Shown here: positions 27,271 through 38,388 of the stretch, piece by piece
Position numbering within the stretch: the first letter of the stretch is position 1
Layout of the letters: each line of letters opens with the position of its first letter
Source of the DNA: a virus
DNA length: 64,000 nt
IMG/VR virus record: IMGVR_UViG_3300031372_000005
Coordinates: 15,545 to 79,544 of that record
Direction: 5' to 3' (one strand)
The notes under the pieces: model-generated
Seen by the model: only the letters and a program-made list of their open reading frames with translations
The model's database searches: none
What the model was told of the DNA's origin: nothing
Program-made: the position numbers and the translations under genes

Positions 27271-28004
27271 GTGTTGATGTAATTCAAGATGCTATGATGT
27301 CTGCTTTTGAATCCCAGATGGGTAATGTCTATACAGCAATGCCTTGTGTTGTAGTAGCTATTAGAGATAGCTTACAAGGTCAGATGGTGGATATACAGCC
27401 AAGCTTGAATCAGAAGTTTAAAGATGGCTCTGTCCAAGAGAGGCCTGTTATCTTAGGTGTTCCAGTGTCGTTCCAAGTATCAAAGACAGCAGGCTTCACG
27501 TTCCCCATAAATGTAGGCGATACAGGGACCGCTATTTTCTCCATGAGAAATATGGATACTTGGAAGTCTGGTAATGGTAGACCAACAAGCCCTGCCAATG
27601 CTGCAAAAATGGATAAGTCCGATGCTATATTTTTTCCAGGTATTCAGCCTCCAAGTGTTGCAGTAAATAATCCTGGCAAGCATATTCTTGCTCACAATAC
27701 ACAAGATACCGTAGTTTTTGCCAACCTTGGTGGCGCTGAGAGTGAGGTCAGACTAAAAGCTGATGGTAGTGTAGAGGTAAACACTTCTAATAAGCCTGTC
27801 ATAATCAATTGCTCAGATGCTACGGTTAATGCGTCAACATCAATTAATTTGAATTCCCCCACTATGACAGTGGATGTTGCTAACACACTCTGGATAGGCA
27901 ATATCAACCACACTGGTAACTATACAGGTGTTGGTGTGCAGACCTTCAACGGCGTTGTCTTCAGCACCCACCGCCACGGTACTTCCCCCCCTCCATCAAA
28001 TTAA
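27267..28004 (+). CDS. baseplate central spike (Gp138-like N-terminus)
   Basis: VDIQPSL...GVPV...FP...GD pattern; C-terminal THRH metal-binding motif. Confidence 0.8.
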   Translation: MSVDVIQDAMMSAFESQMGNVYTAMPCVVVAIRDSLQGQMVDIQPSLNQKFKDGSVQERPVILGVPVSFQVSKTAGFTFPINVGDTGTAIFSMRNMDTWKSGNGRPTSPANAAKMDKSDAIFFPGIQPPSVAVNNPGKHILAHNTQDTVVFANLGGAESEVRLKADGSVEVNTSNKPVIINCSDATVNASTSINLNSPTMTVDVANTLWIGNINHTGNYTGVGVQTFNGVVFSTHRHGTSPPPSN

Positions 28005-28012
28005 GGTTTTAT

Positions 28013-28384
28013 ATGGATTTCAAATTGGACTCAAAAGGGGATCTGATCTGGCGTAATGGTCCCCTTCTTAAATCTGATACCACTCAACCTTATACAGAGA
28101 ATGTAGCGCAAAGACTTTACATTAAGCTTCGTACATTCCAAGGTGAGTGGTTTATTGATACAACCTATGGTGTACCTTATTGGCAACGCATTCTTGGGAT
28201 CAAGCAGCGTGGTAAAGCGGCTATCGACCTTATTATGCAAACGGCTATTCTTGAAGAGGTTGGTGTTAAAGAGATTGTAAGCTTTAATTCAACTTTCAAT
28301 AACAGACAATATTCTTTGGAATTTCAAGTACGTGTTGTAGATGGAAGTATTACCAATCCAATCGTAGTTGACCCAATCTCTTAA
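28013..28384 (+). CDS. baseplate wedge subunit
   Basis: QRLYIKLRTFQGEWFIDTTYGVPYW motif. Confidence 0.7.
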   Translation: MDFKLDSKGDLIWRNGPLLKSDTTQPYTENVAQRLYIKLRTFQGEWFIDTTYGVPYWQRILGIKQRGKAAIDLIMQTAILEEVGVKEIVSFNSTFNNRQYSLEFQVRVVDGSITNPIVVDPIS

Positions 28385-28395
28385 AAGGAAATAAA

Positions 28396-29835
28396 ATGGC
28401 GGGTATTTCTGACCAAGGCTTTACAACAAAAAGAATGACGGAAATCCTGTCTGACCTTAGAGCAGAAGCTACAGCGCTCCTACAAGATCAAGTAAGTCCA
28501 GGAGATGTTGTAGATGTATCTGATAGTTCCGCTTTAGGTCGTCTTATTGCAATTGTAAGCCCTAGCATCACTGATCTTTGGGAAGCAGCTCAACAAAACT
28601 ATGCAGCGTTTGATCCTAATACTGCAACAGGTGTTGCTTTAGATAATCTGGTGGCCCTAGGCGGCATTATCAGGCAAGCACAGACCTTTGCTGTGGCTCA
28701 AGTTATCTTGACAGGGGATACGGGTACTACGGTTGTTCTAGGAGCCACAGTAGGCAGTTCTGTAAGCAGTTCTCAATGGACTTTAATTGCACCGGTAACA
28801 CTGAATTCTGTAGGTGTAAGCGGAGGTTCTTTTACTCCTTTGGTTGTTTCTAACAACACCGCCTATACTATCAGCTATCAAACCAATACTACAACCAATA
28901 CTATTACATATACATCAGGAACTAACGCTACTGCTACAAATATTGTTGCTGGGCTTTCTTCTGTGATTAGCTTAAGTCACCCGTCTTTTACATCAAACAT
29001 CAATGGAAATATTCTGACCATCTCAAGGGTTGACCCTTTTAGTACAGTTAATATTACTACATCATCAAATCTTGGTCAAACCAAATCGCAAAAAGTTGGA
29101 GAAGTTAGGTCTGTTAATGCAGGGCCTGTTAGCTCCGAAGTTAATACCATCACAAATATTTTAACTCCTCAACTTGGTTTTGATTCTGTGACCAACCCGC
29201 TGCCTGCATCAGGCGGTGTCGATATGGAGACTGATGAGGAGCTTCGTACAAGATTTCGTGAAACAAAATTTGAACGGGCTGCCTCAACAGTAGATAGTAT
29301 CTATTCAGCCCTGATTGATTTATCTACTGTTGAACAAGTTGTTGTTTATGAAAATGATACCAATGCAACAGATGACAAAGGAATTCCTGCCCACAGTTTT
29401 ATGCCGATTGTGCTAGGTGGTGTTTCTGAAGAAATTGCTCAAGCAATATGGGAAAACAAACCTGTAGGTATCAGAAGTTTTGGTGATACATCTGTTCTAA
29501 TTTATGATACACAAGGCTTTGCACACAATGTTGCATTCAAACGTCCAGAACCTGTTCCTATTTATATCACATTGAATTTGACCAAAGAAGATACTTATCC
29601 TGGTTCAGGTGATGATGATATCAGAAATGCTATTATTCAGTTCTTTGAGGACAATCAAGGTATTGGTGATGATGTGGTCTACAGCCGTCTCTATACGCCA
29701 ATCAATACAGTACCTGAACATTTTGTTAATAGTCTAAGAATAGGAACGTCCCCTAATCCAACAGGAATGACGAATATCCTCATTGATTTTGACCAGATTG
29801 CTACTATTTCAAGCGCAAATATTCTAATCAATTAA
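28396..29835 (+). CDS. baseplate J-like protein
   Basis: ATGVALDNL, GVDMETDEELRTRF and PAHSF motifs. Confidence 0.85.
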   Translation: MAGISDQGFTTKRMTEILSDLRAEATALLQDQVSPGDVVDVSDSSALGRLIAIVSPSITDLWEAAQQNYAAFDPNTATGVALDNLVALGGIIRQAQTFAVAQVILTGDTGTTVVLGATVGSSVSSSQWTLIAPVTLNSVGVSGGSFTPLVVSNNTAYTISYQTNTTTNTITYTSGTNATATNIVAGLSSVISLSHPSFTSNINGNILTISRVDPFSTVNITTSSNLGQTKSQKVGEVRSVNAGPVSSEVNTITNILTPQLGFDSVTNPLPASGGVDMETDEELRTRFRETKFERAASTVDSIYSALIDLSTVEQVVVYENDTNATDDKGIPAHSFMPIVLGGVSEEIAQAIWENKPVGIRSFGDTSVLIYDTQGFAHNVAFKRPEPVPIYITLNLTKEDTYPGSGDDDIRNAIIQFFEDNQGIGDDVVYSRLYTPINTVPEHFVNSLRIGTSPNPTGMTNILIDFDQIATISSANILIN

Positions 29836-29846
29836 GGAGTGAGAAT

Positions 29847-30632
29847 ATGGCTATCACACCTTTTTTTGAGGAGCAGTATTTAGAGGTTGCTCGGACCAGA
29901 GTAACAGAGCAATTTAAAGATAAGGTTATCTTTGATAAATATTTGCAACTTCTTTTAACTGCTCAAATTGAGATTCAGAAAACCTTCAAAGACCTTATGC
30001 AGCTTCGTTCGTTAGATACGGCTACAGGCGAACAGTTAAATATCATCGGTAGAATTGTTGGGCAAGATAGGGTTCTATTAAATTCTGATCTTTATAATTT
30101 CTTTGGATTTGAGGGTGCTCTAAAAGCAGGCTCAATGGGAACGCTATCTAATCCCGCTGTAGGCAGCATATTCTATTCTTTGGGTGAGCCATTAGGTGGA
30201 AACATTGAGCTTGATGATGAAACCTATAGACTTTTTATACGAGCAAAGATTCTTAAAAACACTACCGCATCTACTTCGGAAGAGTTTATCAGAAGTGTAA
30301 ATCTTATATTTGGTGATAGTAATGTTATCGCGATTGAGGATACTACCTCTGCAAATATAATGGTTTTGTTTAATAGACCTCTATCTGATTTTGAAAAAGG
30401 ACTTCTGCTTTATGTAGATTCTAGTGCTGGTTATCCATCAGGTCTTATTCCTAAGACTATCGGTGTAAATATAAGGTATGGAGAATACACACGAACGGAT
30501 ACACCGATAAGCTGGTCATTTACTTACAGTAATGACGGTTCATGGGCATACAATACCCCCTACAATTATAACCCAGTGCCTACATACGCTGATAAATTTG
30601 ATGAATCAAACATCGAAATTACTTTATACTAA
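29847..30632 (+). CDS. baseplate wedge protein (DUF2612-like)
   Basis: LDTATGEQLNIIGRIVG...FFGF...DDETYRLFIRAKILKN. Confidence 0.75.
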   Translation: MAITPFFEEQYLEVARTRVTEQFKDKVIFDKYLQLLLTAQIEIQKTFKDLMQLRSLDTATGEQLNIIGRIVGQDRVLLNSDLYNFFGFEGALKAGSMGTLSNPAVGSIFYSLGEPLGGNIELDDETYRLFIRAKILKNTTASTSEEFIRSVNLIFGDSNVIAIEDTTSANIMVLFNRPLSDFEKGLLLYVDSSAGYPSGLIPKTIGVNIRYGEYTRTDTPISWSFTYSNDGSWAYNTPYNYNPVPTYADKFDESNIEITLY

Positions 30633-30641
30633 AGGAAGTTT

Positions 30642-32597
30642 ATGGCTAACTTAACTGAGAGTCCTATTTATGAATCAGGGATTTTCCAACTAGAGAAACT
30701 TACCCCACCTCTTGGTGGTGCTCCAGTTATTGACAATGGCGTACCCAGCGCTGGTCATGCGAACGTTCAAGGGCTTCAACTTGCTAATCGTACAGCTTGG
30801 CTAAAAGATCAAGTTACCAGCCTTCAATCTCAAGCAACATTTGATCCAGCAGCAGGAAAAGTCCCAAAAGCTAGGGATACAGGTTATGTTGATTATACAT
30901 GGCTATCTCCTATAAATAATCAACGTCCAGAAGTTATTCTTTACAAAGCAACTTTGGTTCCGGATGCTGTTTATTTTAGGCAATTTGGCGCTATTGGTGA
31001 CGGTGCTAGTCATCCACTGTCAGAAAGATTTTCTACACTAACCGCAGCCCAAGCTGTGTACCCACACGCAACATCCTTATCTGATGAAACTGATTGGGCT
31101 GCCATACAACTTGCATGTAACAGCAATAGCAAAGTTTTATGGGGAGGAAGTGGGGTCTTCATTTCCAACAAAAAGATTTTAGTCAAGAATAAAGACAAAT
31201 CCATTTTTGGAGACGGTGAATCAGTATGTGAAATTCGGTTCACTGCGCAAGTAGACTTTGGTGTACGTTTTGAACAAAATGGTCCTTATGCCTCAAACTT
31301 TGCAGGTATCTTTGTTTCTACAAATCTTCTAAATACCGGTACAGGCCTTAGTGCAAGCTATGTTGGGTATACCGGAATCTATGACAGAAATAAAAGGTTC
31401 TTAAACTTCTCTAAAAACAGGGTATCCGGCACCGACTATTTTCAATTTGGTTGGGTGATTGGCGTACTTACAGATGAAGTTACTTTACCTATATTCTCAG
31501 AAAACTTTGTTGTAGGTAGACGTAATACAGCAGCAACCTCAAAAACACCTGCGATGTGGTGGCCTTGGACCCAATATGGTTACTATTACACTTCCAGTAC
31601 AAACTTAGAACCAACTGACGCAATCTATGAGTCATGTGATTGCCGCTATGCAGCCACAGCCTACTATAACAAAGGTACTCTTGAGGGTGTAAGGTACATA
31701 AAGTGTTTGGCAGTGGCTTGTGAGTGGGGTATCGATGATGACCGCCGCGCTGTATCTGGCGATAGTACAATCAACCCATGGCTGGGTGTCACGGAATGTC
31801 ACCTGAACTGTGCTGCTGGTGGTATCAGGTCTAGGTACGCATACCAAGGTTTTATTAGTGATAACTTGATTTATCAGTTTGATCAGGTCGATGAAGCATT
31901 TCTTGGTATTACGCTTGAAACAGGCAATAACTGGAAAGTTCATAGTAATCATATTACAATGGTTGCCACTAGCGCCTTTTCTACTGCCGGTATTAGGCTG
32001 CAACAAAACAATAAATCTTTCGTACATGACAATGATATGGAGTTTGGGGATTTTGGTGTAGTTATTTCTGGTACTAATGGCATTGTTGGTACGAGAGTTT
32101 ACGATAACCGTGCAACAGGGCGTGATGGTAAAGAGATACTTCAGGTAACCTATATAAATGGTGCTGATAAGTATTTGAACCCGTCTGCCATCCTTGGTGG
32201 GATAGTCTCTGAGAATGCCAATAGTGCTACTGTAGCTATTGCATCGGGGGGCGTAAATACCATTTCAACGTTCAGTTTGGATGATTACCCCGCAGGCTCT
32301 ATTTTTAAAATTTACTCTATCTGTCAAGTTACTAAAGGTGGAACTGCTGGCACTACAAAACTTTATGTTGAAAAAACAGCCGGAACTGCAAATGTTCTTT
32401 ATATGTTTAACTCTACAGGTCTTGGTGTGCAAAATGATTCCCATGTTGCTGGTACTAACTGGCAAGCTAATTTGGCAGGAATAATTAAAAAGACTAGTGC
32501 AGGAACATTATCCTTGAAGTTGGCCGTTTCAAGTGGGGGATCGAATGCCTCTGTGGCGGCAGGTGATGGTCAGTATGTACTTGAAAGGATATTATAA
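30642..32597 (+). CDS. tailspike with beta-helix (putative depolymerase)
   Basis: N-terminal attachment (QGLQLANRTAWLKDQ); QFGAIGDG...DWAAIQ pectin-lyase-like start; beta-rich repeats. Confidence 0.75.
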   Translation: MANLTESPIYESGIFQLEKLTPPLGGAPVIDNGVPSAGHANVQGLQLANRTAWLKDQVTSLQSQATFDPAAGKVPKARDTGYVDYTWLSPINNQRPEVILYKATLVPDAVYFRQFGAIGDGASHPLSERFSTLTAAQAVYPHATSLSDETDWAAIQLACNSNSKVLWGGSGVFISNKKILVKNKDKSIFGDGESVCEIRFTAQVDFGVRFEQNGPYASNFAGIFVSTNLLNTGTGLSASYVGYTGIYDRNKRFLNFSKNRVSGTDYFQFGWVIGVLTDEVTLPIFSENFVVGRRNTAATSKTPAMWWPWTQYGYYYTSSTNLEPTDAIYESCDCRYAATAYYNKGTLEGVRYIKCLAVACEWGIDDDRRAVSGDSTINPWLGVTECHLNCAAGGIRSRYAYQGFISDNLIYQFDQVDEAFLGITLETGNNWKVHSNHITMVATSAFSTAGIRLQQNNKSFVHDNDMEFGDFGVVISGTNGIVGTRVYDNRATGRDGKEILQVTYINGADKYLNPSAILGGIVSENANSATVAIASGGVNTISTFSLDDYPAGSIFKIYSICQVTKGGTAGTTKLYVEKTAGTANVLYMFNSTGLGVQNDSHVAGTNWQANLAGIIKKTSAGTLSLKLAVSSGGSNASVAAGDGQYVLERIL

Positions 32598-33628
32598 TGC
32601 CTAATATTTCCAAACCTAGTGATATTAATAATGTTTGGGCAGCTACGGGTGATATTGTAGCACCCTCTAGCGACTATGTTCAAAACGGGTGGGAAGCTAT
32701 TATTCCTCCCCGTGAGTATTTCAACTGGCTTGATAATCGCCAAGATCGATTCAATGCCCATGTAAACCAGCATGGTATTCCTGTGTGGGATGCTACCACA
32801 GAGTATCAAGCAAACCTGAGCTATACCAAGGGCAGTGATGGTCTTATTTACAAAGCTCTTAAAGTTAATTCTAACGTAGATCCAGTAAGCGATACAACAG
32901 GCGCCTGGATGTTATATGCGTCTAGAGGAGCTTTGCTACGTACTACCATTTATACCAGAAGTGGAAGCACACAGCTTGTTTCTGTAGATGGTAGTACGCC
33001 AGGAATTACAGGTGCTGGTACATTCACCCCACTACCTTATAGCCGAATCATGAGAGTAAAGGTGCAAGGTGCTGGTGGTGGTGGGGGCGGCAGTGCCACC
33101 ACTGATTCAGACACCTTGTCTGCGTCTGGTGGTGGTGGTGCAGGAGCCTATGGTGAAGGGTATTTTAACCCTGTACAAAGGACTGTCATTGTAGGTGGTG
33201 GTGGTGCTGGTGGTGCTGCTAACTCGTCGGCTTTTGCCGGAACAGGTGGGACAAGCTCTGTAACAGGCCTAATTTCAGCGCCCGGCGGTATTGGGGGCCA
33301 GTCACAACCATCTTCTGCAACAAGGGCTGGTGTATATGGCGGCACAAACAATAGCTCTCAGCCATCTGGAGCAAACCTTCTATCACAACGTGGAGGTGGT
33401 GGTGTGTATGGCCTTCAAATGGCTGGCCTTTCTCCAACACAAGTTGGTGGTAAAGGAGGTGCATCATACTTTGGCGAGGGTGCTCAAGGTCCGGATGTTA
33501 CTGGTCCAGGCCGTTTAGGTGCTAACTACGGTAGCGGTGGTAGTGGTGCAGCTTCTACGATAAACAGTGCTGGACAAATTGGTGGCGCTGGTGCAGCTGG
33601 TATTATAATCATTGAAGAATACGCATAA
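32597..33628 (+). CDS. tail fibre protein with Gly-rich C-terminal domain
   Basis: WAATGD...GW...PPREYFNWL N-terminus; GAGGGGGG...GAAGIIIIEEY C-terminus. Confidence 0.75.
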   Translation: MPNISKPSDINNVWAATGDIVAPSSDYVQNGWEAIIPPREYFNWLDNRQDRFNAHVNQHGIPVWDATTEYQANLSYTKGSDGLIYKALKVNSNVDPVSDTTGAWMLYASRGALLRTTIYTRSGSTQLVSVDGSTPGITGAGTFTPLPYSRIMRVKVQGAGGGGGGSATTDSDTLSASGGGGAGAYGEGYFNPVQRTVIVGGGGAGGAANSSAFAGTGGTSSVTGLISAPGGIGGQSQPSSATRAGVYGGTNNSSQPSGANLLSQRGGGGVYGLQMAGLSPTQVGGKGGASYFGEGAQGPDVTGPGRLGANYGSGGSGAASTINSAGQIGGAGAAGIIIIEEYA

Positions 33629-33672
33629 AACCAATAGGCACAAGGACGTGCTTTATCCACAGGAAATGAATT

Positions 33673-33789
33673 ATGAAAATATCCGAAAAAGGACTGTCCC
33701 TTATCAAGTCATTTGAGGGACTAGAACTTAAGGCTTATAAAGATTCTGTTGGTGTGATTACTATTGGTTTGACATCCCTCTTAATGTAG
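33673..33789 (+). pseudogene. truncated GH24 (T4/P21-type) lysozyme
   Basis: AGGA RBS; MKISEKGLSLIKSFEGLELKAYKDSVGVITIG with E15/D24/T30 spaced like T4 lysozyme E11/D20/T26; unrelated sequence and stop after codon 32. Confidence 0.85.
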
Positions 33790-33797
33790 TATAAAAT
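33769..33797 (+). promoter_or_regulatory. sigma70 promoter at the lysozyme breakpoint
   Basis: TTGACA-N17-TAAAAT beginning at the first base after lysozyme codon 32; ACCTCA/TGAGGT hairpin covers the downstream RBS. Confidence 0.8.
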
Positions 33798-33830
33798 AGT
33801 ACCTCATTAATTAAGCTGAGGTAATTATAA

Positions 33831-34391
33831 ATGTGCAAAGAATTTTTAGCAATACAGGATCCAACACGGAAAGCGAGTCTTATTCGTAGACTTGGAGAAA
33901 AAACTTTATTTAATCCGGTTAATGGTTGTTTAGAGTGGGTTGCTAAGGCTGTCAATAACGGGGGCTATGGCAACATCTCCGCTGGAAGATCTTTCGTGGG
34001 TATGCGTGCTCACCGCCTTGCTTGGGTTCTTTTGACAGAGAAGCCTATCCCGGAAGGTATTTATGTAATGCACTCTTGTGATAATCCTAAGTGTTGTAAT
34101 ATTGAGCATCTTTCTTTAGGCACCCCTAAAGACAATATGGACGATAAAATGTCTAAAGGTCGTGGTACACCTCCACCGAATTATACAGGTAACGACCACC
34201 CTCTAAGAAAGAATCCTGAACTTGCTAGTCGAGGTAGCTCCAACGGAAACTCAAAACTGACTGATGAGATAGTTAAAGAAATATTACTATCTGAAGATGG
34301 TTTGAGTGTACTAGCTAGTAAATATTTAGTTAATAAGGCCACTATTTCCAGCATTAGAAATAGAAAGACGTGGAAGCACGTGGAGGTTTAA
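33831..34391 (+). CDS. HNH homing endonuclease
   Basis: GCLEW...GYG...RAHRLAW...VMHSCDNPKCCNIEHLSLGTPKDNMDD; C-terminal SKLT...HTH. Confidence 0.9.
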   Translation: MCKEFLAIQDPTRKASLIRRLGEKTLFNPVNGCLEWVAKAVNNGGYGNISAGRSFVGMRAHRLAWVLLTEKPIPEGIYVMHSCDNPKCCNIEHLSLGTPKDNMDDKMSKGRGTPPPNYTGNDHPLRKNPELASRGSSNGNSKLTDEIVKEILLSEDGLSVLASKYLVNKATISSIRNRKTWKHVEV

Positions 34392-34970
34392 ATGTTAGAT
34401 TATTCAAAAGCTGCAAAGCTCTTGGGTGTGGAGGAGGCAGCCATTAAGGCTGTCGCTTCTGTTGAGAGTGCTGGTGATGGCCTGATAAAAGACGCTGGTG
34501 GTAATAGTGTACCAAAGATTCTTTTTGAACGCCACATCATGTTCAAACGTCTCCGTGATTTTACCCCATTCAAATCGGCAGATTTAATGGCTAAACATCC
34601 TGATATTGTGAATTCATCTCCCGGTGGGTACAAGGGTGGTATTGCTGAGTGGGGCAGACTGAATCAAGCTATTGCTATTGATAAGAAAACGGCTTTAGAA
34701 AGTGCATCTTATGGTGCGTTTCAAATTATGGGTTTTCATTGGCAGCTTCTCGGTTTTAAATCTATTCAAGAGATGGTAGACACTTCCTATACTGAGCAAG
34801 GTCAATTAGACCTATTTGTTTTATTTATCAAGGCAAACCCTAACCTTAAGAATGCATTGTTTCGTAAGGATTGGGCAAGCTTTGCTAAAGGGTATAATGG
34901 TTCAAACTACCATATTAATAAATATGACCTCAAGATGAAAGAAGCTTATGAACGATTCAGTAAAGGTTGA
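34392..34970 (+). CDS. endolysin, N-acetylmuramidase (DUF3380-like)
   Basis: AIKAVASVES...PKILFERHI...SASYGAFQIMGFHW...WASFAKGYNG. Confidence 0.88.
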   Translation: MLDYSKAAKLLGVEEAAIKAVASVESAGDGLIKDAGGNSVPKILFERHIMFKRLRDFTPFKSADLMAKHPDIVNSSPGGYKGGIAEWGRLNQAIAIDKKTALESASYGAFQIMGFHWQLLGFKSIQEMVDTSYTEQGQLDLFVLFIKANPNLKNALFRKDWASFAKGYNGSNYHINKYDLKMKEAYERFSKG

Positions 34971-35283
34971 AGAGCCCATTACACCCCTCACAAAAGAAAC
35001 ATCTGTTGAGGCCAATATAACCTCAACGCTCTCTCCTACACCTACTAAACTAAGTATTGTACCCAATTGGTCTAAAGTGATCCGAACCTACTCCTTTTGG
35101 ATTATGGTTGCATCTGCTTTGTTAAGTCTGGTTGAAGTTATTTTACCGTTCTTCTCACTCCTTGAACCCACCATGTCTGTTGCAGCGTATGGTGTAAGTA
35201 TGTTCCTACTCAACGTCTCTGCTGCTGTGTTCCGACTAATCAAACAACATAAGTTGTGGGTTCCAGAAGAGCCAAGAGAATGA
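34948..35283 (+). CDS. putative holin
   Basis: Two hydrophobic helices; VPNWSKVIRTYSFW and RLIKQ motifs; directly after endolysin. Confidence 0.6.
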   Translation: MNDSVKVEEPITPLTKETSVEANITSTLSPTPTKLSIVPNWSKVIRTYSFWIMVASALLSLVEVILPFFSLLEPTMSVAAYGVSMFLLNVSAAVFRLIKQHKLWVPEEPRE

Positions 35284-35720
35284 TATCTTTCCTTTCAAAC
35301 ATCTCTTGGACCTACTACTTGATTGCAGGGTTAGTACTAGCTCTTTTAGCTTCAGGTTATCTCTTGAGCAACAAGATTGAAGAAGTAGGCTCACTACAGG
35401 CTCAGAATAGCACTTTAACCGAGCAATTAGCCACATCAGAGGCTGATAAGGCACGTTTGAATGCTACCGTAGCTCTTAACGCTCAGACATCCTTAGAAGA
35501 CGCTACAGAGCGTGAAAAGCTTCGTTCTGAGGTTAGTGTCTTAAGCAAGCAAATCACGTCCCTAAAGCGTCTCACTAAGAGCACCCCTTCAGATGTTAAA
35601 TTCAACAATCAAAGCTCTGATGATATTTTTATCTCTGATGATCTTAAGCGCTTGCTCGACGCAGCCTACTGTAATTCAAAAGCCAGTTTATGTCCAGATA
35701 CCAAGCAATCTTCTAAGTGA
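35280..35720 (+). CDS. i-spanin (Rz-like) 1
   Basis: N-terminal TM helix, coiled coil, C-terminal YC..C. Confidence 0.7.
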   Translation: MISFLSNISWTYYLIAGLVLALLASGYLLSNKIEEVGSLQAQNSTLTEQLATSEADKARLNATVALNAQTSLEDATEREKLRSEVSVLSKQITSLKRLTKSTPSDVKFNNQSSDDIFISDDLKRLLDAAYCNSKASLCPDTKQSSK

Positions 35721-35877
35721 ACCTTGCCAAGCAATTGAGGCTGGTGAAACACTGTCAAGCTTGGCTCAAGGGTATGTCAGTAACACTGGATGTATTAGTG
35801 AGTATTCTATTAGGCTTAAGAAATTACGTGAGTGGGATATTGGTCAATCTGAGATTTATGGGTCTAGTCCTAAATAA
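35620..35877 (+). CDS. o-spanin (Rz1-like lipoprotein) 1
   Basis: Lipobox LSAC; Pro-rich; two further Cys; overlaps the i-spanin 3' end in another frame. Confidence 0.75.
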   Translation: MIFLSLMILSACSTQPTVIQKPVYVQIPSNLLSEPCQAIEAGETLSSLAQGYVSNTGCISEYSIRLKKLREWDIGQSEIYGSSPK

Positions 35878-35890
35878 AAGAGAGTTCTTT

Positions 35891-36394
35891 ATGGAAGATA
35901 CAGATAACACACCTTATAAATCAAGGTGGACAAAGTTTGAGGACTGGGCAGTAGAGGGAAATTTGCACATTTGGTATTTGATAATTTCGGCGATGGCCTT
36001 GTGTGTACTTCTTCTGATTATTGAAAAAGAAGCTAATAAGAGTTCAGACTTAGGCAAAAGGATTATTGAACTTCAGGCGCAGGTTCAAAGTAAAGAAGGC
36101 AAGATTCTCAGTCTTCAGGCTGATATGGAAGCACAAAGACAGGCTTATCTTATGCCAAAAGAACTCCCCAAAAAGGCTGACGAGTCTGCTGATAAAGCTG
36201 CTATTAAGGTAAACGAGAAAATCACCAAAGTACAGGATGCTTTGATTGATAAAGTTCAACAGCCTAAAATTATTACCAAAACAGAAACAACCACTGTCAC
36301 CATTCCTGTAAATAAAGAGTTGAACAATATTATGTTTGAGTCTTATTGTTCAACAGTTCCTGATAGTGACCAGTGTAGGAAGATTAAGAAATGA
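35891..36394 (+). CDS. i-spanin-like protein 2
   Basis: TM helix, coiled coil, C-terminal YC...C like the first i-spanin. Confidence 0.55.
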   Translation: MEDTDNTPYKSRWTKFEDWAVEGNLHIWYLIISAMALCVLLLIIEKEANKSSDLGKRIIELQAQVQSKEGKILSLQADMEAQRQAYLMPKELPKKADESADKAAIKVNEKITKVQDALIDKVQQPKIITKTETTTVTIPVNKELNNIMFESYCSTVPDSDQCRKIKK

Positions 36395-36660
36395 AATTTA
36401 CTCTTCTTATTATGATATGCTTATTCATGACAGCTTGTACCAGTAACGTTAAAAGTATTATTATCCTACCTAGCGATAGTATGCTACAAGAGTGTCAGGT
36501 TTCGCCTCCCCCTACTTTGACAGGGAATTCTGAAAAAGACAAGTTGTTGCTGGCCAGTGCTTGGTCTTTGCAAACTGGTAATCTTGGTAAGTGCAATCAA
36601 AAACTAAGAACCCTTAAGACTTGGAAGACTAACACAGCTAAACGTATGGAGGCGCTTTGA
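36391..36660 (+). CDS. o-spanin-like lipoprotein 2
   Basis: Lipobox MTAC; LPSDSMLQECQ..P..C..L..L..W pattern paralleling o-spanin 1. Confidence 0.65.
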   Translation: MKFTLLIMICLFMTACTSNVKSIIILPSDSMLQECQVSPPPTLTGNSEKDKLLLASAWSLQTGNLGKCNQKLRTLKTWKTNTAKRMEAL

Positions 36661-36938
36661 TGCCTAATTCTGAACTAAACGCCTCAAAAGATAAAAGTTT
36701 TGAAACTATTAAAAGCGCTTTGATTGGGCTATTGTTTGTTCTTCTAGGCTGGCAGTACTCTTCTTTTCAAAAACTTGAAGACCGTGTATTTACAATCTCT
36801 ACAACCACTATGACGCAAGATGCGGGTCGGTTGATGGAAGAGCGTTTAAATCGTAGTATGGAGACTAAGTTTTCTGAGATGTACTCTCGTCTGGATCTAA
36901 TTCTTCGCCTTGTTCAACAAAACGATAAAAACAAATAG
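36657..36938 (+). CDS. single-TM membrane protein (possible holin/antiholin)
   Basis: One TM helix plus coiled coil in lysis cassette. Confidence 0.45.
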   Translation: MMPNSELNASKDKSFETIKSALIGLLFVLLGWQYSSFQKLEDRVFTISTTTMTQDAGRLMEERLNRSMETKFSEMYSRLDLILRLVQQNDKNK

Positions 36939-36963
36939 CCCAAAAGCAGTAGAGGCTACCTAA

Positions 36964-37512
36964 ATGTGGTTAAAGGTATTAAATGTACTAGCTCAAATAA
37001 TTATAATAATCCTAGCCTTGGTAGTTGTCTTTACCATGTCAAAAAAGCAAATGATAGACTCCACATTTAGTAGCTTTCAAAAGCGTATTGATGAACAACT
37101 CGCTGAAGACAGAAAGCACTATGATGAGAGGATAGGAATGGTGCAGGATAACCTAAACCGCTATCAACTTAATAGGGAACAGAGGGCTAAGTTTCTCACT
37201 ACACGTATAGATGAATTGTATGATTTATACAAGAAAGATCCTTCTCCCATCTTAAAATCAAATAATCCACCCTTAGAAACATCTTCTCAAGCTCAGCCTG
37301 AAATACCCGTATTTCTTGATAAGAATTTCACATACGTTGAGAATCGACTTAACAAGATTGATGAAAGATTAGATATCAACTACAATAAACTAGAAGGTAG
37401 ATTAAATATACTCGAACAAAGAGTAAACCTTTTAAACTCAAATAAAGCCAGCGGTGTAAAAGTTATCCAAAACAACATGAATAACCAGACAATTACTGGA
37501 ACAGTACAATAA
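36964..37512 (+). CDS. membrane-anchored coiled-coil protein
   Basis: N-terminal hydrophobic helix and two coiled-coil stretches. Confidence 0.55.
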   Translation: MWLKVLNVLAQIIIIILALVVVFTMSKKQMIDSTFSSFQKRIDEQLAEDRKHYDERIGMVQDNLNRYQLNREQRAKFLTTRIDELYDLYKKDPSPILKSNNPPLETSSQAQPEIPVFLDKNFTYVENRLNKIDERLDINYNKLEGRLNILEQRVNLLNSNKASGVKVIQNNMNNQTITGTVQ

Positions 37513-37566
37513 AAATAATAAGGTCGAAAGACCAATTTAGGGACGCCATTCCCTACCTCAGACTTT

Positions 37567-37601
37567 AAGCTCCCCTCCTTCCGGTCGGGAGCTTTTTCTT
37601 T
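37567..37601 (+). terminator. intrinsic terminator ending the late operon
   Basis: AAGCTCCC-N12-GGGAGCTT-TTTCTTT at the strand switch. Confidence 0.8.
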
Positions 37602-37610
37602 GTCTGTTGA

Positions 37611-38213
37611 TTAATCAGTTATTTCTATCTTCCATCCCATCATAGCTTCATACACCCTAGGATCTAATTGGGCTTTCCAGAGAACAGCCTTACTCCTAAT
37701 AAAAATTTCTTTTGCATTTTTATAGGCAGCAAAGGCTAATTCAACCGTTGGATAAGAGCCAATATGTTGACTCAAACTACGATCACCTTGTCTGAGAGAT
37801 GCAACATAGTTTTTATTAACCGGGTGTTGATATACGCCAAGTGGGTACTTCCCCCGGTTAATTCTGTTGTTAATAAAAAGAATATTTACTTCTTGAGGAA
37901 CAAAACAACAAGTTTCTGGTGAATACAGTTTGTTACCTTTACTTAGAATATCTTTATCAAGACACCAACCAACTTGCTTATATTCTACAGAGTGCCACCA
38001 CTCAGCAAAACATTGGTAGTCAAACCATTCATCACAAACGATTGCTTTTTCTCTAAGATACGCCGCATTCTTCACATTCTCTTTCCTTTCAAAATTATTG
38101 CATCTTTCATGCATTGAATTCCAAGTATTACTTTCAGGATAACCTCGTTTTGTCTCGCTATTAAACCTGGGCCAACCACCCTTTTTACGAGCTTTTGAGT
38201 TGTAAGGCTTCAT
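37611..38213 (-). CDS. HNH-like homing endonuclease
   Basis: WNSMHERC...CDEWFDYQCFAEW...LDKDIL...YSPETCCFVPQEVN; AP2-like C-terminus. Confidence 0.75.
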   Translation of the reverse strand: MKPYNSKARKKGGWPRFNSETKRGYPESNTWNSMHERCNNFERKENVKNAAYLREKAIVCDEWFDYQCFAEWWHSVEYKQVGWCLDKDILSKGNKLYSPETCCFVPQEVNILFINNRINRGKYPLGVYQHPVNKNYVASLRQGDRSLSQHIGSYPTVELAFAAYKNAKEIFIRSKAVLWKAQLDPRVYEAMMGWKIEITD

Positions 38214-38214
38214 A

Positions 38215-38388
38215 TCACTTCTCCACGCACCCTGCACCAACACTGCTTCCAAGCAAACTAGGCACCACTACAAAGAAGTATTTACCATCAAGCTCTTTAC
38301 ATTGAGAACTGACTTCTTTTAAGTTTACTTTGGAAGAACAGCCATATAGCATAAGTGCAGCAAGAATCATTGCGTACTTTATATTCAT
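38215..38388 (-). CDS. small lipoprotein
   Basis: Signal peptide with lipobox LYGC. Confidence 0.6.
   Translation of the reverse strand: MNIKYAMILAALMLYGCSSKVNLKEVSSQCKELDGKYFFVVVPSLLGSSVGAGCVEK

Follow-up and report, generated by a model that had tools for sequence, protein, structure and literature searches.

The 64,000-nucleotide stretch of viral DNA analyzed here (the window) belongs to a record of 83,253 bp that is estimated to be 95% complete. At positions 33673–34970, it carries the first 32 codons of a GH24 lysozyme gene, broken off at its catalytic codons and followed by a promoter, a free-standing HNH nuclease gene, and an intact N-acetylmuramidase gene of an unrelated family. Judging from sequence comparisons, HNH nucleases of this type appear to swap lysis genes between phages. 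The best reading, to which a probability of about 0.7 is given, is an intronless homing into the catalytic codons of the lysozyme, with a spare lysin carried along. It is based on a closely related contig with an intact lysozyme gene, whose homology to the window ends at the break, and on the recurrence of this break across contigs.

The GH24 remnant, its intact counterpart and the adjoining genes

The GH24 remnant (33673–33768, + strand) contains codons 1–32 of the lysozyme, including E15, D24, and T30 in the spacing E15-x8-D24-x5-T30, and is held in a 38-codon open reading frame (ORF; 33673–33789, + strand) with a good ribosome-binding site (RBS) and an ATG start codon. Codon 32 is GGT, with its last base at 33768. 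It is followed by six unrelated codons (LTSLLM) and a stop (33769–33789, + strand), which lie outside the GH24 homology, derive from cassette DNA, and differ among instances: the tail reads LTLPIN in contig L263 and LLF in L174 and is an immediate TGA in L094, L178, L182, and L265. Residues 12–34 of the ORF correspond to positions 1–23 of the Pfam profile PF00959, with a score of 22.7 bits against a cut-off of 22.3, and not to the complete domain of ~125 profile positions, intact kin having 142 residues. Indeed, a profile search seeded with the remnant identified such an intact GH24 protein of 142 residues (P0081), whose residues 1–32 are identical to the remnant (32/32) and which reads on past it as ...TIG-YGSTGSHVS. 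At the nucleotide level, the remnant and the 5′ end of this intact gene are identical at 91 of 95 positions, and all four differences are synonymous. On the strength of this match, in a relative that is 95% identical, a chance resemblance to GH24 is ruled out. The original prediction, made from the letters of the DNA, had recognized these 32 residues with the whole catalytic triad, and both the profile and the nucleotide matches bear it out.

The remainder of the lysozyme gene was not found in the 83,253-bp record: a PF00959 search returned model positions 1–26 only, and a search with P0081 as the query gave a match confined to residues 1–35. A group I intron was not found by Rfam at positions 33000–36000 with E values up to 10, where only noise matches to snoRNA and miRNA families occurred. 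There is no room for an intron because only 62 nt separate the remnant from the start of the HNH gene and 0 nt separate the HNH stop from the muramidase start. Thus, the arrangement shows none of the features of a group I intron-encoded endonuclease, i.e., no intron, no 3′ exon, and no non-coding DNA after the HNH ORF. The earlier statement that both the 3′ half and a nearby intron are missing holds, and, on these sequence searches, splicing of two GH24 halves is excluded as an alternative.

L346, the contig that encodes P0081, matches the window in gene order (fibre proteins of 651 aa and 343 aa, the latter glycine-rich, and then a lysin, a holin, etc.). By blastn, window positions 27676–33767 (6,092 nt) share 95.2% nucleotide identity with L346, positions 33768–35064 have no nucleotide homology, positions 35065–35859 share 81%, positions 37162–37487 share 65%, and identity returns to 92–93% from 38217; no alignment was reported for 35860–37161 and 37488–38216. 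The two tail-fibre genes left of the break share 98–99% protein identity with their L346 counterparts. Because high identity stops at 33767 and returns at 38217, the window is read, on this alignment, as an L346-like backbone carrying a 4.45-kb foreign lysis module, with its left joint (33767/33768) at the boundary between remnant and promoter and its right joint at 38216/38217. A presence/absence polymorphism therefore exists at one site in otherwise near-identical genomes, since the HNH gene is missing from L346, which matches the window at 95% as far as the junction. Aligning the breakpoints with those of a relative bearing an intact GH24 gene had been proposed with the original prediction, and this relative loses homology exactly at the junction between remnant and promoter. 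The left joint is also the putative homing site: besides the end of blastn homology, the loose ends of contigs from a metagenome run described below (X3) begin past 33767, and the same codon is affected in 13 contigs. Across the joint, the intact allele reads ...ACTATCGG|ATATGG..., and the L346-type allele around the presumed cut region reads ...ACTATCGGATATGG....

The cassette begins one base past codon 32, as had been predicted, with a sigma-70-like promoter, TTGACA-N17-TAAAAT (33769–33797, + strand). This is the top sigma-70-like match within 6.5 kb (11/12) and the sole exact TTGACA-N17-TAWAAT in the 64-kb window; an exact match of this form arises in 6 of 100 shuffles. Kin cassettes have a −35/−10 pair with 17-nt spacing in the same place. 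Downstream, a hairpin (TACCTCA/TGAGGTA; 33800–33823, + strand) would cover the Shine–Dalgarno sequence GAGG of the HNH gene (33818–33821). In single-sequence folds, an equivalent stem pairs with the Shine–Dalgarno sequence in most of 15 kin 5′ untranslated regions, with differing stem letters. RNAalifold found no consensus pairs in an unadjusted alignment of 13 of these regions, in which the stem strands are out of register. The masking of the HNH Shine–Dalgarno sequence is partly checked, its basis being the single-sequence folds.

The HNH gene (33831–34391, + strand) encodes 186 residues, predicted to form a His-Me finger nuclease with a C-terminal helix-turn-helix, and is classified as a putative homing-endonuclease gene from its Pfam, PHROG, and fold matches. 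Its product belongs to the HNH_3 family (PF13392; 38.8 bits against a cut-off of 24.8, E value of 7e-10), matches PHROG 6254 and 59 (‘HNH endonuclease’), and is the single HNH_3 copy in the genome. H61, C83, D84, N85, C88, C89, N90, H93, and N102 are invariant across 20 homologues and are all present in the window protein. In its AlphaFold2 (AF2) model, with a predicted local distance difference test score of 84.8, residues 6–113 resemble I-PpoI (Z 8.0) and I-HmuI (Z 7.2) in an exhaustive structural search, both Z values being moderate, and residues 138–185 resemble Tc3/Hin-type helix-turn-helix domains. The invariant residues and these moderate fold matches point to a ββα-metal fold with conserved His, Asn, and Cys positions. 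No match to PDB sequences was obtained by phmmer, and Foldseek of the model against the PDB gave none at E values up to 0.001. Likewise, a search of 50,697 phage records by blastn, with the 2.1-kb region as the query, gave no match; the best matches in isolated phages are about 40%, and at most ~42%, identical for the HNH protein and at most ~63% identical for the lysozyme. The nearest cultured-phage HNH_3 relatives (~40%) are T7-like gene 7.7-type endonucleases, many of which are annotated beside an internal virion protein with a lytic transglycosylase domain.

The abutting gene (34392–34970, + strand) encodes an intact N-acetylmuramidase that matches PF11860 over model positions 2–174 of 175 (E value of 2e-56) as well as PHROG 1224 and 2860 (‘endolysin’). 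The succession of an HNH gene and an unrelated muramidase without a gap was thus correctly called from the sequence. Since a full-length PF11860 match stands in a lysis cassette, ahead of holin-like and spanin-like genes, this protein is considered the working endolysin of the phage. It shares 83% identity with the HNH-linked copy in L176 and 72% with the HNH-free copy in L002. Its RBS, GGAGG, is embedded in the final HNH codons (34375–34391, ..KHVEV). The HNH C-terminus is KHVEV in all muramidase-linked copies and GVTDNL in GH19-linked copies.

Recurrence, lysin pairing and age of the remnants

HNH homologues at 35–89% identity were traced to their source contigs. In 16 distinct contigs, the HNH gene lies immediately beside an intact endolysin gene, upstream of it in 15. 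The neighboring lysin is a PF11860 muramidase in the window, L263, L174, L264, L176, and L177; GH19 in L094, L178, and L265; a PHROG-90 endolysin in L182; and GH24 or SAR-GH24 in L095, L179, L180, L181, L185, and L193, which makes five endolysin kinds beside one HNH clade. A GH24 5′ remnant ends at the same T-x-(G/C) codon in 13 of the 16, and the −35 hexamer starts at or overlaps its last base. L177 and L095 have shorter SAR-type remnants, consisting of the signal-anchor piece only. In the GC-rich L193 (L193:1–1141), an HNH gene of 35% identity lies on the opposite strand, between a remnant ending ...IWTIG and an intact GH24 reading ...IWTEGVGH. Altogether, the remnants comprise at least four GH24 subtypes, each like the intact lysins of kin phages. 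A stranded GH24 5′ end, an HNH gene, and a working GH24 gene are found together in L185, L179, L180, and L193. In-situ tandem duplication at such GH24-type loci was rejected for L179 and L180, in which the remnant and the downstream gene are of different subtypes.

Neither a remnant nor such an HNH gene was found in any of 80 HNH-free muramidase loci or 80 intact-GH24 loci. Among 169 loci with HNH_3 relatives, GH24 pieces are confined to the close clade and L193. A metagenome scan with the HNH profile yielded one new close instance, L185; the others were distant HNH_3 genes without GH24 pieces, except L193. A truncated GH24 copy of another kind may exist in L092 (6236–6625), where the second GH24 copy matches the profile from position 38 only, the counterpart in L090 being complete; it may be a 5′-truncated or frameshifted lysin.

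The HNH gene and the muramidase had been regarded as a single cassette. This part of the original prediction fails: the HNH clade is found with five lysin types, the muramidase also occurs without an HNH gene in kin, where it directly follows a conserved hairpin (GCACAAGGAYGTGC), both sorts are interspersed in the muramidase tree, and the HNH genes themselves are recombinant. Their N-halves follow the type of the upstream remnant, and their C-halves follow the type of the downstream lysin. For example, the N-half of the L177 protein (P0009) is 80% identical to that of L095, and its C-half is 72% identical to that of the window; this protein and P0010 are chimeras with an N-half like the L095/L181 group and a C-half like the muramidase-linked group. 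The switch point lies near the invariant CDNPKCCN motif. As N-halves track the remnant and C-halves track the lysin, crossovers within the conserved nuclease motif are, from these alignments, the means by which remnants and lysins are re-paired.

The age of the remnant was assessed from the ratio of non-synonymous to synonymous change (pN/pS). L263, with an overall identity of 86%, is arranged like the window. The remnants of the two contain 12 synonymous differences and 1 non-synonymous difference, i.e., a pN/pS of 0.03, and the corresponding values are 0.13 for the HNH gene and 0.06 for the muramidase. Other contig pairs give 0.15–0.36 for the remnant, like the flanking working genes. In a pseudogene decaying since one old event, pN/pS would approach 1. 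The reading frame of the remnant is open in most instances, with damage consisting of a frameshift in L179, an F-to-S change in the F-E-G motif of L176, and a G-to-D change at the last codon in L174 and L264. The low pN/pS and the near-identity to L346 suggest that each remnant belonged to a working lysozyme gene until recently, which is consistent with homing having occurred repeatedly, each time into a different allele.

Both filled and empty alleles are present in X3, a freshwater metagenome run that belongs to another study than the window, whose source sample is from the phyllosphere. X3 contigs that are 95–99% identical to the cassette bridge the junction between remnant and cassette, and two others follow the remnant to 33767 and then continue into an intact GH24 gene (...TIG|YGSTGTHVS). 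These contigs show presence, not linkage. The depth over the remnant is ~2× that of its neighbors. One low-depth X3 contig joins 34460, in the 5′ region of the muramidase, back to 33727 in the remnant (‘goes back 734’); this join may be an assembly artefact or a rearranged variant.

Proposed homing mechanism and alternative explanations

In the favored reading, the 38-codon ORF is the remnant of the original GH24 endolysin gene of the phage, and the free-standing HNH gene, which starts at the break, would be expressed from its own promoter, with a hairpin masking its RBS. During co-infection, the conserved codons of the catalytic site (...ACT-ATY-GG|A-TAT-GG...), or their close vicinity, would be where the HNH protein cuts or nicks intact GH24 alleles, and the genome with the endonuclease gene would then serve as the repair template. 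The sequences show the remnant, the exact joints, the recurrence across phages, and the mosaic, whereas each step of the mechanism is inferred, including cleavage at the joint and which genome acts as the donor. On the left side, the recipient remnant would be kept up to the cut because the shared homology is limited to GH24 codons 1–32 and the preceding spacer. On the right side, the donor has no GH24 sequence, so repair would run on to the next homology, copying the HNH gene and the lysin and lysis genes that follow. Lysis would be preserved because an intact lysin arrives alongside, here the non-homologous PF11860 muramidase. The imported tract of the window would be 4.45 kb long and would end at a second endonuclease-like gene. 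Homing by gene displacement, as originally proposed, thus gains from the L346 joint, the recurrence in 13 contigs, and the presence of at least four GH24 subtypes, although without a fixed unit of HNH gene and muramidase. Similarly, the proposed replacement stands as far as the resident endolysin is displaced; however, the displaced tract is wider than the endolysin, comprising the whole lysis module and the second nuclease-like gene.

The GH24 copies beside HNH genes may bear a trace of this process. In five of the six (L181, L180, L179, L095, and L193), the junction codon is followed by V-G, with GTT or GTA in place of TAT. In HNH-free GH24 alleles (L266–L345 and P0047–P0166), this position is Y-G in 92 of 120 and 72 of 77 cases and W in most others, with V in 1 in total. 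The V-G copies are what immune, cleavage-resistant target alleles would look like, and they may represent such alleles.

Several observations weigh against the homing reading. The spare GH24 of L185 keeps Y-G, and the Y/V contrast is based on about three independent lineages. L181 has no remnant. HNH-linked and HNH-free genes interleave in the muramidase tree, so that the HNH gene and the lysin are not strictly co-inherited. The C-halves of muramidase-linked and GH24-linked enzymes are 31–39% identical and track the lysin type; as this half is likely the DNA-binding part, target specificity may differ within the clade. The structural Z values of 7–8 are in the range that the search tool calls common. 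The cut site is deduced from the joint, and transfer from endonuclease-bearing into endonuclease-free genomes is assumed from endonuclease biology. Indeed, the data would fit equally well if the lineage of L346 had reacquired a GH24 module through a crossover at this very position.

Other explanations are improbable to different degrees. In one of them, ordinary modular exchange by illegitimate or short-homology recombination produced a chance crossover in GH24, and the HNH gene is an inert passenger. A lysin slot that varies after the same hairpin (GH24, SAR-GH24, or muramidase), the mosaic of 81%, 65%, and unalignable parts between the module and L346, and the existence of HNH-free muramidase phages would all be expected from it, but it is rendered unlikely by a breakpoint that falls on one codon throughout 13 contigs and at least four GH24 subtypes, with the promoter of the HNH clade starting there each time, by the lack of remnants in 160 HNH-free loci, and by the endonuclease-like genes that abut both edges of the exchanged tract. 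A single ancient insertion is given the same low probability. Here, the remnant and the HNH gene would have been passed on since then, either vertically or as a passenger unit, with the real target of the endonuclease located elsewhere, e.g., in the neighboring lysin or the spacer. The co-variation of the HNH C-half with the downstream lysin is consistent with this possibility, as is the interleaving of the muramidases, which would be expected if the HNH gene homes beside muramidase genes; also, synonymous divergence is similar for the remnant, HNH gene, and lysin in several contig pairs. Yet the resident allele of an HNH-free relative (95% identical to the window) shares 96% identity with the window remnant, while remnant, HNH gene, and muramidase are each only ~86–87% identical to L263, the nearest HNH-bearing contig. 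In addition, remnant subtypes follow the local backbone rather than the HNH gene, and the observed pN/pS of 0.03–0.36 is far from the value near 1 that neutral decay predicts.

A slightly lower probability is assigned to the retention of the 32-residue peptide as a translated, useful micro-protein or through translational coupling. Its good RBS and ATG, a pN/pS equal to or below that of neighboring working genes, and a frame that is open in most instances speak for this role; however, the comparison with L346 accounts for the low pN/pS without a function, and recent origin from a working gene suffices to explain it, so that a functional peptide need not be supposed. The lesions in L179, L176, L174, and L264, the reduction to a signal-anchor piece in L177 and L095, the absence of any remnant in L181, and the lack of conservation past codon 32 also argue against a useful peptide. 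Far less probable than the preceding explanations is a split GH24 gene whose halves are brought together again through an intron, trans-splicing, ribosomal bypass, or DNA rearrangement. Group I introns that contain HNH ORFs occur in lysin genes of some phages, and the Gly codon at the break, with a direct stop in several kin contigs, loosely recalls the take-off site of T4 gene 60. Nevertheless, no GH24 sequence past residue 35 is present anywhere in the 83-kb record, the Rfam search and the 62-nt and 0-nt gaps leave no place for an intron, and a complete lysin of another family comes next. From these searches, the split gene is refuted for the genome of the window, unless the 3′ half resides in the missing 5% of the record.

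A broader proposition extends the homing reading: that the HNH clade invades GH24 catalytic codons without an intron or intein while carrying a spare lysin of any family, that recombination within the HNH gene re-pairs remnants and lysins, that the whole lysis module is mobile through the second endonuclease, and that this is a main driver of lysis-cassette mosaicism. It is put forward tentatively, at slightly less than even odds.

Known parallels and the wider lysis region

As a rule, homing endonucleases invade a coding gene either within an intron or intein or by dividing it into halves that still function. In the present case, the target gene would be lost, and the event that removes it would also bring in a replacement, which may even be an unrelated enzyme. 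The closest mechanistic comparison is with the intronless homing of T4-type seg/mob genes, which, like the HNH gene of the window, are stand-alone genes with their own promoter and an RBS hairpin and spread via break repair with co-conversion (PMC2988022). Free-standing phage endonucleases of this sort drive co-conversion of flanking DNA and marker exclusion, and a hairpin often covers their RBS, as in T4 seg/mob (PMC2988022). However, T4 seg/mob genes are usually intergenic or divide a gene such that both of its halves still work (mobE in nrdA, mobA in gene 39/60), whereas in the window the target gene is killed and a whole second gene, often of an unrelated family, would rescue the function, with homing itself deduced from sequence. 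I-HmuI of Bacillus phage SPO1 (PDB 1U3E) likewise combines an N-terminal His-Me/HNH domain with a C-terminal helix-turn-helix and resembles the modeled HNH protein over 92 residues (Z 7.2, root-mean-square deviation of 3.1), but it is intron-encoded, nicks one strand of a DNA polymerase gene, and shares 20% sequence identity.

In ICP1 vibriophages, nuclease genes are described at the boundaries of inter-phage exchange (Barth et al. 2023, PMC10448857). Identity between close phages breaks there at endonuclease genes, as in the window, where the 4.45-kb tract is flanked by two such genes; a text search of that paper gave no mention of lysins, remnants, or pseudogenes. Unlike those of ICP1, the boundary in the window interrupts a coding sequence at its catalytic codons, and the remnant left behind can be dated. 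The nearest structural parallel is found in fungal mitochondria, in which endonuclease genes are flanked by partial duplications of host genes, e.g., C-terminal duplications of atp6 and cob (PMC6279837). Both cases feature an endonuclease gene beside a dead piece of a host gene with a complete copy retained. Nevertheless, the fungal duplications concern the 3′ end, whereas the remnant in the window is a 5′ end in a phage setting, and a non-homologous enzyme can serve as the working copy. A paper on an endonuclease lodged in the GH24 active site with a spare lysin was not found in the open-access library searched.

If the homing reading is true, it would supply a concrete, site-specific mechanism for the long-observed shuffling of endolysins and lysis cassettes. 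The nuclease would recognize a site within one of the most conserved parts of a phage enzyme that is very common, and the filled and empty sites would form natural pairs in which co-conversion could be studied in uncultured phages. For annotation, short ‘lysozyme’ ORFs that precede HNH genes would have to be treated as scars and not genes.

The rest of the exchanged module begins with a DUF7940 holin-like gene (34948–35283, + strand; PF25612, PHROG 1356 ‘holin’), within which nucleotide homology to L346 returns at 35065 (81%). Its product is 79% identical to the holins of L002 and L003 and 65% identical to that of L346. A spanin-like pair with PHROG spanin matches (35256–35720 and 35593–35877) and four further ORFs follow, up to 37512 (+ strand); the proteins from 35256–37512 share 87%, 93%, 35%, 52%, 55%, and 50% identity with their L346 counterparts. 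Because protein identity to L346 swings gene by gene in this way (65% for the holin and then the six values above), the module (window 35065–37512 against L346:6553–8980) is, by these values, a patchwork of several older exchanges.

The second homing-endonuclease-like gene (37611–38213, − strand) encodes 200 residues matching PHROG 953 (‘HNH endonuclease’, E value of 3e-51), with no Pfam match. Its probable start is the ATG at 38213, preceded by the RBS GGAGAA, the program-made ORF starting with a TTG at 38252. The gene is absent from L346, where a 130-nt spacer stands instead, and the right joint touches its start codon. The two nuclease genes point inward from opposite ends of the module. 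A relative of the second nuclease (34% identical, with a weak AP2 match) is located between an intact GH24 gene and a holin gene at L084:5615–6151 (− strand), and a third is located at L003:307–816. From the genes found there, the lysis region of this phage group is one that attracts several kinds of nuclease genes.

A conserved hairpin, GCACAAGGACGTGC (33638–33651, + strand), occupies part of the spacer that separates the tail-fibre gene from the first lysis gene. It belongs to the resident backbone, lies inside the tract that is 95% identical to L346, and is present in kin with or without the HNH gene; it may terminate transcription of the tail-fibre operon or have a regulatory role. The hairpin GCACAAGGAYGTGC is located ~20 nt before the first lysis gene, whatever the lysin, in the window, L004, L006–L008, L094, L177, L178, and L263.

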